Positions 23,166 to 30,315 of a stretch of 64,000 nt of DNA are shown here, piece by piece. Source of the DNA: Alphaproteobacteria bacterium (lineage in GTDB: Bacteria; Pseudomonadota; Alphaproteobacteria; Paracaedibacterales; CAIOTO01); the NCBI GenBank assembly GCA_947488275.1, contig CANKZX010000002.1, forward strand, positions 337 to 64,336, read 5' to 3'. The notes under the pieces are model-generated. The model ran no database searches. It had not been told where the DNA came from and worked only from the letters and a program-made list of their open reading frames with translations. How positions within the stretch are numbered: position 1 is the stretch's first letter; each line of letters begins with the position of its first letter. The position numbers and the translations under genes are program-made.

Positions 23166-23573
23166 ATGACATTAATTGATGGAATTAACATTGATTCACT
23201 GCTGAAAGCTTTTTCTAAATTTGATGAATTTCGGCAGCATACATCAACAGAACAAGAAAAGGCAGGTACGATTCATGCATTTGAGTATTGTTTTGAACTT
23301 ACGTGGAAAACAATGAAACGATTGCTTAATGTTCGGGGGCAAATTGCCAATTCCCCGCGTGAGGTGATTCGTTTGGCTGCACTAGAAAATTTTATTGATG
23401 ATCCTGAACGTTGGTTTGATTTTCTTAAAAAACGCAATATGACCACACATACGTATGATGAAAAAGAAGCAGAGGCGGTTTTATCCATTTTGACGGATTT
23501 TGCGTCAGAAATGGAAATATTTTTTGATAGGATTAAAGTAGAATCAAATGTTTATCGAAGAAAAACACCTTAG
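23166..23573 (+). CDS. HEPN-domain protein, HI0074/NTase-substrate-binding family (HepT-like toxin)
   Basis: HAFEYCFELTWKTMKRLL block and the Rx4-6H motif KRNMTTHTYD. Confidence 0.8.
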   Translation: MTLIDGINIDSLLKAFSKFDEFRQHTSTEQEKAGTIHAFEYCFELTWKTMKRLLNVRGQIANSPREVIRLAALENFIDDPERWFDFLKKRNMTTHTYDEKEAEAVLSILTDFASEMEIFFDRIKVESNVYRRKTP

Positions 23574-23883
23574 AATTATTAACGCTATTTTAGCAAAATA
23601 CCCATATACCTTTTATGTGTTTGGATCACGCGTCAAAGGAACATCTAAAAAATTTTCCGACCTTGATTTGTGTTTTATTGAAAAAATTCCAGACAGTGAA
23701 CAAAATAGGCTTGAAGCTGATTTTGAAGAATCAGATTTGCCGTATAAAGTTGATCTACTTGATTGGTATCAATGTGATGAAGCGTTCCAACACTTAATTT
23801 ACCCTGATTTATACCTTTTTCAACTTGGGGAAAATGAAGAAAAATTGAGCATAATACCGATAAAAAACGGCATCTACAAATAA
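23548..23883 (+). CDS. minimal nucleotidyltransferase (MNT, MntA-like antitoxin)
   Basis: GSx10DxD motif FGSRVKGTSKKFSDLDLCF. Overlaps the upstream HEPN gene by 26 nt. Confidence 0.8.
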   Translation: MFIEEKHLRIINAILAKYPYTFYVFGSRVKGTSKKFSDLDLCFIEKIPDSEQNRLEADFEESDLPYKVDLLDWYQCDEAFQHLIYPDLYLFQLGENEEKLSIIPIKNGIYK

Positions 23884-24045
23884 TCGATATTGACTGTAGT
23901 ATCGAATTGAGGTTAATAAAAGTAGATCTTTATCTAAAAAGATCCCTTATGACTCTGTCAAATTATTTTTACAAAAACTTGCACACTGCGTTATATTATG
24001 CATATATGAATATAAATTATAAAATAAATTTTTAGGGATAATTCA

Positions 24046-25923
24046 ATGAATGTTAAATCTTACTTAAAACTAATAATACTAATACTGACGTTAACATCGT
24101 ATTGTTGTGCGGCGTTTATCGATACGATTGCGCGAAATCATACCGATCGGCAACGTGTGTATAATGGCGATTATTTTAACAGCGCTCGTCCGATCTATGC
24201 GTACACAAATGAAAATAACGAATTATTACGCGATGAAAGCAAGGTTAATCCAAATCGTGGCGCAAGTCAGGCTGAGAAAGAAAAAATTGCAACAGCTGTG
24301 TTTGGCGCAGCATGGACTGATTTAATGATTGATTGTGAGCAGCGGTTAACACCAGATGCTATGATTCAAGCGCGCAAATATCACAACCCATATAATGACG
24401 TTATTGATGGGCACGTTCAGGTAAAAAATCATCGTTTAAAAAGCCATTTTCAGATTTTGTATTGGCTAGATACATTGGCGCGTTTTGTTGTACAAGACCT
24501 GATTAATAAACAAGGGCAGGTTATTGACGCGGATTATTTAAATCAGTTTGATTGTTATAATAGTCTTTCTAATCTTTATAGTTTTGCTGGTTTTGAAAAA
24601 CAAACAATTGCAGGTTGGCTTGATTCCGTTCACGAGAGTCATAAAATTGGGCTAAACACACGAAAAGCTGAAGCTGAAGTGAATCTTGCTGCGCTAAACC
24701 TTACTAAACAGAACAAAGCTGCGATAATAATTCAACGACTTGGACGCGGACATTTAGCGAGGTCTGAAATCAACAAGCGTCATCTAATTGCACAAGAAGA
24801 GGCGATTCGTGCAGCGCACTTGGTTGAAGTGCGAGAGAAAGCACGAATGCTTTTGGACAGGAGTGAACTTGCTAGCATTGAAAGATCAGAAATTATACCT
24901 GAGCTAGTTGACGCATTCTGTGAAATCGTAGCACAAGAGCATCCCACACAAAGATTTGATGCTGCCATTATGTTGCTGAGTGATATGATTGAAATTGACA
25001 CAATGACAGCGGAAGTTTTAAATCGCGGAAGGATTATTGCAAGGAACGCTTTAACCGAGATTGCTGAACGTGCCTCTGCTAGAGATTATAACCCGAATAA
25101 TGAACCAATCAATCCATTATTTGCAGCATACATTCTCAATCACTATCCAATAGCTGTGAGTACAGGGAGAGACCGACAACCACCCTTTAATTTACTTAGG
25201 TTTAGAGATGAAAAAAATAAATTATTAATTTCAGGAAGCCCTATCAATAGCACTGGGCGGTTTCTATCTATTAAGGAAACGAACATTGAGATGTATGAAT
25301 GTTTTAACGTAATGGCACATAGCACGCACAGAACAAACGAAAGAGCAGCATGCGAGTTACTTTATTGTTTATGTGATCCCGATCCCTTTCGGTATTTTGC
25401 TTCGGCTAAAGCGTCATTAGAAACTATGAAACGCCAGAGTATATTAAAAGAAGTGGCAGCTGCAGAAATATTACGCGAAAAAACACCGGTTGACGACACT
25501 GAGGGTGATATGCCTTTTTATGATGCTATCAAAAAAATGCGTTTACGGCCCCAATTGTATCCTCTGGTGTTTGATGCAGTGATTGCGATTTCGCTTTACC
25601 AAGACCATCCAAAGTGGGATATAGCAATTAACCCAGATGCCAAAAAAGGTTCTGCCCAAAGAACACTTGTTAGTGATCTGCATATTTATGCTCCATTAGC
25701 ATTGAGACTGAATCCCATGAACGATATTCTGCGAGAAAATTCAGCAATATTAGGCGATGATCTTTTTTATAGGAGATATGTGGGTTATGCTCAAACAGAC
25801 GGTTGGAGAGATTACCTTGATAACCCCTCCGTTTTTGATGAAATAATGAAACATCAAATTATGTCAGGTCCTGTAGGAAAAGTTTATGAGCACCTATTAA
25901 ATCCTCCGTTTTTGATGAAATAA
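24046..25923 (+). CDS. signal-peptide protein: family N-domain plus one IQ motif plus unknown C-domain (paralog 1)
   Basis: N-terminal hydrophobic segment. IQRLGRGHLAR at aa 229-239. About 2.26-kb tandem paralog downstream. Confidence 0.85.
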   Translation: MNVKSYLKLIILILTLTSYCCAAFIDTIARNHTDRQRVYNGDYFNSARPIYAYTNENNELLRDESKVNPNRGASQAEKEKIATAVFGAAWTDLMIDCEQRLTPDAMIQARKYHNPYNDVIDGHVQVKNHRLKSHFQILYWLDTLARFVVQDLINKQGQVIDADYLNQFDCYNSLSNLYSFAGFEKQTIAGWLDSVHESHKIGLNTRKAEAEVNLAALNLTKQNKAAIIIQRLGRGHLARSEINKRHLIAQEEAIRAAHLVEVREKARMLLDRSELASIERSEIIPELVDAFCEIVAQEHPTQRFDAAIMLLSDMIEIDTMTAEVLNRGRIIARNALTEIAERASARDYNPNNEPINPLFAAYILNHYPIAVSTGRDRQPPFNLLRFRDEKNKLLISGSPINSTGRFLSIKETNIEMYECFNVMAHSTHRTNERAACELLYCLCDPDPFRYFASAKASLETMKRQSILKEVAAAEILREKTPVDDTEGDMPFYDAIKKMRLRPQLYPLVFDAVIAISLYQDHPKWDIAINPDAKKGSAQRTLVSDLHIYAPLALRLNPMNDILRENSAILGDDLFYRRYVGYAQTDGWRDYLDNPSVFDEIMKHQIMSGPVGKVYEHLLNPPFLMK

Positions 25924-25969
25924 TGAAACGTCAAATTATGTCAGGTCCTGTAGGAAAAGTTTATGAACG

Positions 25970-26174
25970 CCATTCAGCCTTACGGTGAACAAGAACCTAT
26001 AGTTTCCATCATGGCGAGCCAGCGTAAACTGGTGTGGTCAATCCAGAAAAATAATATTTCTGAGTAAAATAGCCGCTGCTGAAATAACAGCCACTGGATC
26101 GTCACGGAGCAATGCTCCTTGTGATGACAGCAAAAAACATATAGGACTTTCTATTATCTCACCCCGAATTGAGG
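25970..26174. repeat. double-hairpin intergenic repeat element, copy C (inverted relative to A)
   Basis: CATCATGGCGAGCCAGCGTAAACTGGTGTGGTCAATCCAGAAAAATA ... CAGCCACTGGATCGTCACGGAGCAATGCTCCTTGTGATGAC ... CACCCCGAATTGAGG. Confidence 0.75.
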
Positions 26175-26307
26175 TTAATAAAAGTAGATCTTTATCTAAA
26201 AAGATCCCTTATGACTCTGTCAAATTATTTTTACAAAAACTTGCACACTGCGTTATATTATGCATATATGAATATAAATTATAAAATAACTTGTTAGGGG
26301 TAATTCA

Positions 26308-28302
26308 ATGAATTTTAAATTCCACTTAAAACTAATAATAATACTGACGTTAACATCGTATTGTTGTGCGGCGTTTATCGATACGATTGCGCGAAATCAC
26401 ACCGATCGGCAACGTGTGTATAATGGGGATTATGTTGACAACGCTCGTCTGATCAATGCGTACACAAATGAAAATAACGAATTATTACGCGATGAAAGCA
26501 AGGTTAATCCAAATCGTGGCGCAAGTCAGGCTGAGAAAGAAAAAATTGCAACAGCTGTGTTTGGTGCAGCGTGGACTGATTTAATGATTGATTGCTGTCA
26601 ATTAACACCAGATGCTATGATTCAAGCGCGTACGTATCATAATCCATATAATGAAGTTATTGATGGTCGCGTTCAGGTAAAAAATCATCGTTTAAAAAAT
26701 CATTTTCAGATTTTGTATTGGTTAGATACGTTGGCGCGTTTTGTTGTACAAGACATGATTCATACGCCAAGAGAAGTTATTGATACGAATTATTTAAGTC
26801 AATTTGATGATTATAATGGTCTTTCTGATCTTTATGATTTTGCTGGTTTTGAAAAACAAACAGTTGCAAATTGGCTTAATTCTGTTCACGAAAATCATAA
26901 GATTGGATTCAACACACGTAAAGCTGAAGCTGAAGTGAATCTTGCTGCGCTAAACCTTACTAAACAGAACAAAGCTGCGATAACAATTCAGCGATTTGAA
27001 CGTGGATATTTAGCGAGATCTGAAATCAAGAAGCATCATCTGATTGCACAAGAAAAGGTGGCTCGTACAAAAAAAGCTGCGATAGCAATTCAGCGACTTG
27101 GACGCGGACATTTAGTGAGATCTGAAATCAAAAAGCATCATCTGATTGCACAAGAAAAGGCAGCTCGTGCAGCAGCATTAATCGAAGTGCGCGCGCAAGC
27201 AGAAGTGCTTTTGAATAGCAAGGTATTTGCTGATATTGAAATATCAAAAATTACACCAGGGCTATTTGACGCATTCTGTGAAATCGCGGAACAAGCGCAT
27301 TCTGAACAAAGATTTGATGCTGCCATTATGTTGTTGAGTGATATGATTGGGGCTGAAACAGTGACAATGGAAGCCTCAGATAGGGGAAAGGCTATTGCGA
27401 GGAACGCTTTAACCGAGATTGCTGAACGTGCTTCTGCTACAGATTATGACCCGAATAGGGAGTCAAGCAACCCACTGTTTGCGGCATACATTCTCAATCA
27501 CTATCCAATGGCTACGACCGACGTTATGAGTACAGGAGGAGAGCTGCCGCTGCCCTTTAATTTACTTAGGTTTAGAGATGAAAAAAATAAAGTCTTAACT
27601 GGAGAAACAATTACTGTTAGCGGCGCAATGAAACCTTTATCTATTAAGAATACAAACATTGAGACGTATGAATGTTTTAACGTAATATCACATAGCACCC
27701 ACAAAAAAAACGTAAATGCTGTATACGAGTTACTTTATTGCTTATGTGATGCTAATCCCTTTCGCTATTTCGATTCGGCTAAAGCGTCATTAGAAGCTAT
27801 TAAACGCAGTAATCACGAGAGGATATTAGCACAAGTGGCGGCTGTAGAAACATTACGTGAGAAAACGCCATATGACGACCATGAAGGTGAAACACCTTAT
27901 TTTAATGCTATTAAAGCAATAATGCCTGCACCTCAATTGTATCCTCTGGTGTTTGATGCAGTGATTGCTATTTCCCTTGACCAAAATCATCCAAAGTGGA
28001 ACATGGCAATTAATCCAAGTGCTGCCAAAAATACTAGAGAAAATATACTTAACACCGATTTGCATATTTATTCAAGAGTAGCATGGAGAGTGAATCCCAT
28101 GAAAAATATTCTGAAAGAAATTTCAGCAATATTGGGTGATAATATTTTTTATGAGCGATACTTGGGTTATACTAAGAAGGATGGTTGTCATGAACTCCTT
28201 ATACCCTCAAATTCTGATGAAACAATAGAAATCCAAATTAGATCAGGTCCTTTAGGAATATTTTATGAATTCCTACTAAACCCTCCATTTTTGATAAAAT
28301 AA
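26308..28302 (+). CDS. signal-peptide protein: family N-domain plus two IQ motifs plus unknown C-domain (paralog 2)
   Basis: Collinear with 24046..25923. IQRFERGYLAR and IQRLGRGHLVR lie in a 34-aa (102-bp) internal tandem duplication. Confidence 0.85.
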   Translation: MNFKFHLKLIIILTLTSYCCAAFIDTIARNHTDRQRVYNGDYVDNARLINAYTNENNELLRDESKVNPNRGASQAEKEKIATAVFGAAWTDLMIDCCQLTPDAMIQARTYHNPYNEVIDGRVQVKNHRLKNHFQILYWLDTLARFVVQDMIHTPREVIDTNYLSQFDDYNGLSDLYDFAGFEKQTVANWLNSVHENHKIGFNTRKAEAEVNLAALNLTKQNKAAITIQRFERGYLARSEIKKHHLIAQEKVARTKKAAIAIQRLGRGHLVRSEIKKHHLIAQEKAARAAALIEVRAQAEVLLNSKVFADIEISKITPGLFDAFCEIAEQAHSEQRFDAAIMLLSDMIGAETVTMEASDRGKAIARNALTEIAERASATDYDPNRESSNPLFAAYILNHYPMATTDVMSTGGELPLPFNLLRFRDEKNKVLTGETITVSGAMKPLSIKNTNIETYECFNVISHSTHKKNVNAVYELLYCLCDANPFRYFDSAKASLEAIKRSNHERILAQVAAVETLREKTPYDDHEGETPYFNAIKAIMPAPQLYPLVFDAVIAISLDQNHPKWNMAINPSAAKNTRENILNTDLHIYSRVAWRVNPMKNILKEISAILGDNIFYERYLGYTKKDGCHELLIPSNSDETIEIQIRSGPLGIFYEFLLNPPFLIK

Positions 28303-28384
28303 TAAAAAGCCAAATTAGATCAGGTTCTTTAAGAATATTTTTTAATTGAGTGAGGTTGTGAGTGTGAGTTGTTTCTGCATAGCG

Positions 28385-29745: not shown

Positions 29746-30315
29746 ATGTCACGCTTTTCAATCGTTCAGATTCCTGGAAAATCTAATTTACATATCCCCG
29801 TAATTGATAAAACCCCACCCAAGGATGATGGTGCGAATACGGGCGTTACGTCACCAGAGTGGATGGTGCAAATGGATACGTTCTTAACCAGCAGTGTTGA
29901 AGGATATGAAAGTTACTGTGAACTTTTTGGTTGGTATGGTGAATCAAGTCGCTATACGTCAGGTAGTTTAGCAAGTTCGCTTTATACATCTGCGACCCTT
30001 CGGCATACAGATCTTGTGATTATCATCCCAAATGGAGGATATAGCACAATGATTGAAGGATTGATGAATACAGGTAATTTCATTAAAAAGCTAGTTATTG
30101 TCCGCCTGGGAAATGTAAAAACAGCAAAGGTTATATTGCAAAAGTTGACATATACAAACTGTCGTATTCAAAAATTTAATCAACAGCTTGATCAATTGGT
30201 TGTCGAATTATCAATTATGACCAAAAACAACACAGTTTATGTTTATGGGCAAGATGGGCAAAGCCAGGGGCAAATGGTCACTCAAGCTGATTATTCGAAA
30301 AATACAGCGAGTTAG
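29746..30315 (+). CDS. hypothetical protein with weak Hcp/tail-tube-like pattern
   Basis: 189 aa. The pattern of the C-terminal 100 aa can be aligned by eye to T6SS Hcp (see findings). Not a confident family call. Confidence 0.45.
   Translation: MSRFSIVQIPGKSNLHIPVIDKTPPKDDGANTGVTSPEWMVQMDTFLTSSVEGYESYCELFGWYGESSRYTSGSLASSLYTSATLRHTDLVIIIPNGGYSTMIEGLMNTGNFIKKLVIVRLGNVKTAKVILQKLTYTNCRIQKFNQQLDQLVVELSIMTKNNTVYVYGQDGQSQGQMVTQADYSKNTAS

Follow-up and report, generated by a model that had tools for sequence, protein, structure and literature searches.

The question raised by this locus is whether two tandem genes in a 64,000-nucleotide stretch of an alphaproteobacterial contig (CANKZX010000002.1; the whole stretch is referred to below as the window) encode exported bacterial proteins with genuine IQ motifs, the calmodulin-binding signature regarded in the initial annotation as essentially eukaryotic, and if so, what such motifs might do there. 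The genes lie on the same strand, and their products (paralogs 1 and 2) are 68% identical in amino-acid sequence over their full length, the sole large alignment gap being a 34-residue insertion in paralog 2. At the sequence level the three motifs are members of the IQ family, carried in a variable linker between two other domains, and the chances seem about even that they serve to dock a calmodulin or calmodulin-like light chain of the host. The parts of the two genes, with lengths in amino acids (aa), are as follows.

24046..25923, + strand: paralog 1, consisting of signal peptide, N-domain, one IQ unit and C-domain (625 aa; public protein entry P0002)
24046..24111, + strand: paralog 1 signal peptide, Sec-type, MNVKSYLKLIILILTLTSYCCA/AF, read from the sequence
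24112..24666, + strand: paralog 1 N-domain, helical and family-defining, ~180 aa, delimited by alignments
24715..24816, + strand: paralog 1 IQ unit c, a single 34-aa unit, KAAIIIQRLGRGHLARSEINKRHLIAQEEAIRAA, core from aa 229 (repeat family D6)
24841..25920, + strand: paralog 1 C-domain, orphan, ~360 aa, with no Pfam, NCBIfam or PDB match
26308..28302, + strand: paralog 2, consisting of signal peptide, N-domain, two IQ units and C-domain (664 aa)
26308..26370, + strand: paralog 2 signal peptide, Sec-type, MNFKFHLKLIIILTLTSYCCA/AF, read from the sequence
26371..26922, + strand: paralog 2 N-domain, with an AlphaFold2 model
26971..27072, + strand: paralog 2 IQ unit a, KAAITIQRFERGYLARSEIKKHHLIAQEKVARTK, found by Pfam, Tandem Repeats Finder and an IQ profile
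27073..27174, + strand: paralog 2 IQ unit b, KAAIAIQRLGRGHLVRSEIKKHHLIAQEKAARAA, tandem duplicate of unit a
27205..28299, + strand: paralog 2 C-domain, orphan, with no Pfam, NCBIfam or PDB match

The motif of paralog 1, KAAIIIQRLGRGHLARSEI, occupies aa 225-242 (AAIII...SEI; nucleotides (nt) 24718-24771) with its core starting at aa 229, and those of paralog 2, KAAITIQRFERGYLARSEI and KAAIAIQRLGRGHLVRSEI, have cores at aa 227 and 261 and sit within consecutive 34-aa units (nt 26971-27072 and 27073-27174). The coordinates and sequences first given for both paralogs were exact on recount, and the statement that all three motifs fit the full IQ consensus was likewise borne out, both by inspection and by a Pfam scan. 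Every fixed position of [FILV]Qxxx[RK]Gxxx[RK]xx[FILVWY] is satisfied by IQRLGRGHLARSEI, IQRFERGYLARSEI and IQRLGRGHLVRSEI, the fit extending in each copy over all 14 residues, including Gly7 and the hydrophobic position 14. With the Pfam IQ model PF00612, whose gathering score is 20.3 bits, paralog 1 scored 21.9 bits in one stretch and paralog 2 scored 37.6 bits in two. In the six frames of the window, the shorter pattern [ILV]Qxxx[RK]Gxxx[RK] is found three times, always as one of these motifs, and in 11 related loci (~140 kb) it is confined to copies of these genes. An independent IQ profile was assembled from 56 distinct units of eukaryotic multi-IQ (ASPM-like) proteins and gave the three units 22.9 (unit a), 13.8 and 15.3 bits; the best score among 2 x 100,000 composition-matched shuffles of the paralog-1 linker and of the IQ-less linker of a distant homologue was 12.3 bits.

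An exhaustive phmmer search of 1.84 billion representative proteins picked out four non-family proteins with a match to the linker region. Since three of these (E = 1e-17 to 1e-12) carry ASH or CH domains together with 14-17 IQ motifs each, counted with the same pattern, they are recognised as ASPM-like eukaryotic proteins; the fourth (E ~9e-4) has IQ motifs only. The similarity of the linker to the eukaryotic proteins spans ~60 residues at 37-44% identity.

The setting of the motifs is best seen from the sole C-domain homologue outside the species, a 625-aa protein (L005:5989-7866) from a metagenome-assembled genome (MAG) of the Holosporales, with 32% full-length identity. It retains the signal peptide, N-domain and C-domain, and its linker is rich in Ala, Arg, Glu and Lys and has no IQ motif. 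Since both flanking domains are kept without it, the motif is not part of either fold; the alignment makes it a lineage-specific insert in a variable linker, the place where an exposed docking site would be expected. At the aligned position the linker of the homologue has '...RVIQQLAEVEEKR...', which could be a remnant or precursor of an IQ motif and is too weak to argue from. For the C-domain itself (~370 aa), searches of Pfam, NCBIfam and PDB at E up to 10 came back empty; some of its Cys and His residues, such as those in YEC...H, ELLYCLCD and HPKW, are the same in all three aligned sequences.

The N-domain (residues ~22-205) is present in only a handful of proteins among the billions searched. 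Besides the window paralogs its family includes P0003-P0005, P0007, P0012, P0014-P0016 and P0018, the phmmer E-values between the N-domain and other members ranging from 1e-57 to 1e-5. No Pfam or NCBIfam model matches it. The residues R34, N39, D62, K77, D91, H132, W189, H197 and G200 (paralog 2 numbering) do not vary in the alignments, and such fixed Arg, Asn, Asp, Lys, His and Trp residues are a hint that the domain has a specific function. An AlphaFold2 model of the paralog 2 N-domain, from an 11-sequence alignment, reached a mean predicted local distance difference test score (pLDDT) of 86 and a predicted template-modelling score of 0.85 and is all-helical bar short strands; with this model, Foldseek gave no meaningful match, the best being E 0.8 in PDB and 0.16 in BFVD, with template-modelling scores no better than 0.29. 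The single match of the N-domain profile to a PDB entry, 21nr_A 'TLP-IPT' (E = 4.8e-5), was rejected as spurious, being composed of three stretches of ~7 bits and a negative one, with individual E >20, in a repeated low-complexity segment of a glycofibril protein.

Behind the N-domain the family members differ. Sel1 repeats follow it in P0003, P0004, P0005, P0012 and the product of L001:2-1297, ankyrin repeats in that of L004:155-2107, and further members have no assigned domain in this position. Among species-representative genomes, relatives turned up in no more than two MAGs, one labelled 'uncultured Alphaproteobacteria' and the other 'Holosporales bacterium'; Joint Genome Institute (JGI) metagenome contigs scanned with C-domain and N-domain patterns held no relatives, and a word-index protein search with a 14-sequence N-domain profile found one fragment only, P0008. 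Two of the Sel1 members, P0004 and P0005, lie in mobile-looking contexts (L008:4286-7888 and L011:1351-8770): P0004 has genes for ParA, MucR, an S24 peptidase and a WGR-domain protein nearby, and around P0005 there are a resolvase, a PDDEXK nuclease and a SUKH/SMI1 immunity-type protein.

Both paralogs begin with Sec-type signal peptides as judged by sequence, in agreement with their earlier description as signal-peptide proteins. In each, a basic n-region precedes a hydrophobic core of 10-11 residues, and the segment ends in ...CCA/AF, with small residues at -3 and -1; equivalent N-termini ending in SFA, CFS or VFA are found in other family members. A lipoprotein was rejected: there is no lipobox, and the Cys pair is missing from more distant members, its lack of conservation in the family arguing against a lipoprotein signal.

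The source organism is probably a protist symbiont of the Holosporales type. The window contains a two-piece transfer-messenger RNA of alphaproteobacterial form and the housekeeping genes tgt, kup, glyA, nrdR, mlaE, thiolase, rbfA, infB, nusA, dnaB, flagellar hook and uvrC; the gene pair itself is flanked on one side by mlaE and a HepT/MNT pair and on the other by the genes for thiolase, rbfA, infB and nusA. Members of the Holosporales live inside protist cells as symbionts. One of them, a Paracaedibacter-like bacterium, lies free in the host cytoplasm, with Sec and a type VI secretion system (T6SS) as its export machinery (PMC8163844).

The reading favoured here, drawn from sequence and from analogy and held at about even strength, is that the paralogs are exported host-interaction proteins which would dock host apo-calmodulin or a calmodulin-like light chain. 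The Sel1 and ankyrin fusions of their siblings, and the distribution of the family over Holosporales and other alphaproteobacterial MAGs, fit a role in host interaction. Under such a scheme the protein would exit the bacterium and get to the host cytosol, possibly by crossing or decorating the outer membrane of a bacterium lying free in the cytoplasm, and the IQ units would constitute a third kind of eukaryote-type docking module beside Sel1 and ankyrin. Each unit would fold as an amphipathic helix gripped by apo-calmodulin or a calmodulin-like light chain, and the 34-aa spacing would leave room on paralog 2 for two bound molecules, like a short myosin neck. Docking might then act as a cofactor switch for the C-domain, signalling 'you are in eukaryotic cytosol' as in SidJ, CyaA, EF and CopC, or it might tether the protein to calmodulin-rich host structures. 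A more far-reaching version is offered tentatively: a novel-fold N-domain could be a chassis for swappable Sel1, ankyrin and IQ modules, the paralog 2 linker could be the first bacterial 'mini myosin neck' for two calmodulins, with copy number altered by duplication and crossover between paralogs, and calmodulin could switch on the C-domain.

The closest functional analogue is SidJ/SdjA of Legionella pneumophila, calmodulin-dependent glutamylase effectors of pseudokinase type, in which an IQ-type helix likewise occurs in a bacterial protein; recruitment of host calmodulin is established for SidJ and proposed here. The IQ helix of Legionella SidJ binds calmodulin with a dissociation constant of ~90 nM, independently of Ca2+ and via the calmodulin C-lobe, and SidJ activity depends on this binding (PMC6858067). 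The SidJ motif is single, incomplete (IQxxxRxxRK) and placed at the extreme C-terminus; in the paralogs the IQxxxRGxxxR motifs are complete, number one or two and are internal, within the linker. SidJ is moreover a Dot/Icm (type IV) substrate with a kinase-like fold, whereas the paralogs have a Sec signal peptide, which points to another route, and no match to a SidJ-like kinase domain was found in Pfam, NCBIfam or PDB with the whole protein or the C-domain profile at E up to 10, nor any sequence similarity to a PDB chain, those of SidJ included. The idea that the motif is essentially eukaryotic was overstated in view of the SidJ precedent (PMC6858067).

With the eukaryotic IQ arrays of myosin necks, ASPM and plant IQD proteins the paralogs have in common the form AAxxIQxx[F/L]xRGxLxR, tandem units and a PF00612 match. 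They differ in having only one or two units, a 34-aa spacing, a bacterial signal peptide, and bacterial flanking domains that have no relation to the motor, CH or ASH domains; IQ motifs of myosins are spaced ~23-25 aa apart. The likeness to AAxxIQxxFRGxLAR of myosin necks and plant IQD proteins noted in the initial annotation extends to the form of the motif, but not to the spacing or number of units.

To CyaA (Bordetella), anthrax EF, CopC (Chromobacterium) and OspC3 (Shigella) the likeness is one of concept, calmodulin serving as an activating cofactor, and no homology to calmodulin-activated toxins was detected. CyaA and EF bind calmodulin without a classic IQ motif. CopC also binds apo-calmodulin without one, and in calmodulin-activated toxins generally host calmodulin is a cofactor with which the enzyme works only inside eukaryotic cells (PMC9239266). 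Ankyrin and Sel1/TPR proteins of amoeba and protist endosymbionts offer a further parallel, combining a lineage-specific domain with eukaryote-type modules as the siblings of the paralogs do; no report of an IQ motif among such modules was found in the literature searched, and the N-domain shared by paralogs and siblings is undescribed. The strategy and the motif are thus known, and the protein family and the arrangement are new.

The history of the repeat could be followed at the nucleotide level. Tandem Repeats Finder reported a repeat of period 102 with 1.9 copies at 26971-27168 and 90% matches, confirming that the difference in motif number between the paralogs stems from a 102-bp tandem duplication. 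By direct count, units a and b are identical at 90 of 102 nt (88%, 12 differences), unit b differs from paralog 1 unit c at 13 of 102 nt, and unit a differs from unit c at 18 of 102. Since the divergence of a from b is about that of b from c, the internal duplication dates to approximately the time at which the paralogs diverged in this region and is not very recent. Recent evolution, as first suggested, is too strong a term, the units being 12% diverged and the two-copy state being kept also in a related strain (gene P0001, below). The diverged copy is unit a, with F, E and Y (Phe4, Glu5 and Tyr8) in place of the L, G and H of units b and c; the substitutions shift it toward the aromatic eukaryotic consensus, and it is the unit with the top profile score. 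Of the changes between units a and b, 3 are synonymous and 9 nonsynonymous; all of them leave the consensus positions untouched, and the ratio of nonsynonymous to synonymous substitution rates (dN/dS) is ~0.9.

Divergence between the paralogs rises along the genes. The stretches 23903-24335 and 26165-26594, which cover the upstream regions and the first ~290 nt of the genes, are 96% identical, as are the 179-nt upstream blocks within them (23903-24081 and 26165-26343, each with a promoter-like site), and identity downstream is 77-87%. The synonymous rate dS climbs from ~0.07-0.15 in the first 100 codons to ~0.49 at the 3' end, and the N-domain has a dN/dS of ~0.3, the C-domain one of ~0.6. This 5'-to-3' gradient suggests gene conversion, or a more recent shared history, at the 5' ends. 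The following smaller features accompany the duplicated genes.

23968..23997, + strand: promoter-like site TTTACA-18-TATATT 5' of paralog 1, a consensus match only
26230..26259, + strand: duplicate copy of the promoter-like site 5' of paralog 2 (repeat family D7)
25821..25971, + strand: ~77-nt tandem repeat across the paralog 1 stop codon (repeat family D5), the protein ending ...LNPPFLMK before the stop
28200..28350, + strand: ~77-nt tandem repeat at the 3' end of paralog 2 (repeat family D5), the protein ending ...LNPPFLIK before the stop

Promoter-like sites of this kind are no more numerous in the region than in shuffled sequence. The ~77-nt repeat is older than the gene duplication and cuts the C-terminus short relative to the L005 homologue: since 77 is not a multiple of 3, the second repeat copy is read out of frame and supplies the final residues, LNPPFL[M/I]K and the stop.

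In L001, from a closely related strain in which the thiolase flank is 98.5% identical, the position is taken by one gene only, P0001 (L001:1461-3431). Its 5' ~740 nt correspond to paralog 1 (95-100% identity from ~nt 100, 86% over the first 100 nt), and from ~nt 800 it corresponds to paralog 2 (97-100%, nearly all of it at 100%, with a fall confined to the final ~70 nt). The switch from one to the other lies within an IQ unit, ...SEINKRHLIAQE/KVARTKK..., and two intact IQ motifs are kept. On these alignments the hybrid looks like the pattern expected from unequal crossover between the tandem paralogs, and because the junction is in frame within an IQ unit, the unit appears to have acted as the recombination joint. 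An assembly chimera was considered and judged unlikely, because the paralogs share no long exact repeat at the junction (85-92% identity); the gene upstream in L001 also differs from that of the window. The proposed course of events is that the IQ motif was gained in a pre-existing helical linker, was duplicated in tandem and would then have become a crossover point between paralogs. The gene 5' of P0001, L001:2-1297, encodes a different family member, with the N-domain and 4 Sel1 repeats, which is not in the window; the equivalent position of the window, directly 5' of paralog 1 and after mlaE, holds the HepT-like/nucleotidyltransferase (MNT) toxin-antitoxin pair (23166-23883). For the N-domain family this locus seems to be a hot spot of variation.

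Several observations weigh against docking of host calmodulin. The motif is absent from the only distant homologue and so is not essential to the function of the family, and the C-domain, as far as sequence searches reach, is without a recognisable activity to regulate. The three IQ copies are a single evolutionary event, since they descend from one another and count as one independent occurrence. That the core I, Q, R, G, R and I14 are the same in the three units, with 8 to 10 other positions varying between units, would speak for docking; this conservation is not significant (p ~0.12, too few changes), and since the chance of sparing five core positions is ~0.12, selection is not demonstrated. 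A full-length AlphaFold2 model of paralog 2, from a 6-sequence alignment, had a mean pLDDT of 36.8, too low for a fold search or for judging the helicity and exposure of the linker, which the model draws (at pLDDT ~30) as helical yet broken at each RG. The Sec signal peptide delivers to the periplasm only, with no outer-membrane route identified, and the 64-kb window has no secretion-system genes, including those of type IV and T6SS. The lifestyle and host, finally, are taken from distant relatives only.

A Sec signal peptide is atypical for T6SS cargo, and no T6SS marker domain was found by Pfam in the paralogs. The gene of the L005 homologue divergently adjoins tssF and tssG (L005:2912-5724, minus strand; Pfam E = 5e-189 and 7e-78); this neighbourhood may point to a tie between the family and type VI secretion, despite the Sec signal peptides of the family members.

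Among the alternatives, the one that survives best takes the IQ-like segment for no more than a linker helix, basic and amphipathic, that serves structure or contacts within the protein itself; the paralogs would then remain in the periplasm or on the cell envelope and never meet calmodulin, and their likeness to the eukaryotic consensus would be without functional meaning. This view accords with the Sec signal peptide and the lack of an identified onward route, with the Ala/Arg/Glu/Lys-rich, IQ-less linker of the L005 homologue, which argues that the linker tolerates many sequences, with the dN/dS of ~0.9 between units a and b, and with the shortness of a motif whose three copies go back to a single event. 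In Rickettsia, some Sec-dependent proteins with ankyrin repeats were initially put forward as secreted, and a periplasmic location was argued for later. The structural view is harder to reconcile with scores far above composition-matched chance and above the Pfam gathering score, with a Gly kept midway in the predicted helix in all copies, with the location of all variable positions outside the consensus, and with the other eukaryote-type interaction repeats of the siblings. On balance we regard this structural role as rather unlikely, though it is the alternative to be taken most seriously.

Docking of an EF-hand protein other than calmodulin, whether a host myosin light chain, a centrin-like or protist calmodulin-like protein, or a bacterial EF-hand protein, is improbable. 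Eukaryotic IQ motifs do bind light chains as well as calmodulin, and unit a differs from units b and c at non-consensus positions that tune the choice of partner (Phe4, Glu5 and Tyr8), so that units a (F/E/Y) and b (L/G/H) may differ in their partners. Nothing, however, sets such binding apart from calmodulin binding, and no EF-hand loop (PROSITE pattern PS00018) is encoded in the 64-kb window, which is a small part of the genome.

That the genes are eukaryotic DNA, present as a contaminant or acquired recently by transfer of a eukaryotic IQ protein as a whole, is very hard to credit even though the only outside linker matches are eukaryotic, since genomic context and a matching G+C content (0.385 for the two-gene region, like its surroundings) on a contiguous bacterial contig mark them as native bacterial genes, with bacterial signal peptides, promoter-like sites, N- and C-domains whose relatives are in bacterial MAGs only, and a eukaryotic similarity limited to the ~60 residues described above. 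An origin of the whole genes from a eukaryote is thus effectively refuted; 102 bp are too short to tell transfer of the IQ segment from convergence.

Some further features of the window were recorded. Between the thiolase and methyltransferase genes a conserved 189-aa open reading frame (ORF; 29746-30315) is present that also occurs in L001; as a T6SS tube protein it was rejected, having no Pfam, NCBIfam or PDB support. A 763-aa ORF at 14466-16757 has no Pfam or NCBIfam match and is conserved in the related assembly GCA_964201115.1 (L007:14685-16976). A tRNA gene (57467-57553) is followed by a phage-type integrase gene (57712-58938), and the two may mark the edge of an integrated element. In the last 2 kb of the window the G+C content falls to 33%.

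Should the IQ units prove not to bind calmodulin, the locus would be a warning that a motif above the Pfam threshold in a signal-peptide protein is not proof of host mimicry. The paralogs and the hybrid P0001 also let one follow, near strain level, how a short linear motif can arise in a linker, be doubled and then become a site of recombination between paralogs. If the units do bind calmodulin, they would represent an independent adoption of the eukaryotic IQ code outside Legionella, and the first that is complete and in tandem. The proposed docking, if true, would also provide handles on an orphan protein family of uncultured protist symbionts, namely a host partner, peptide mutants and a likely cofactor for the C-domain.

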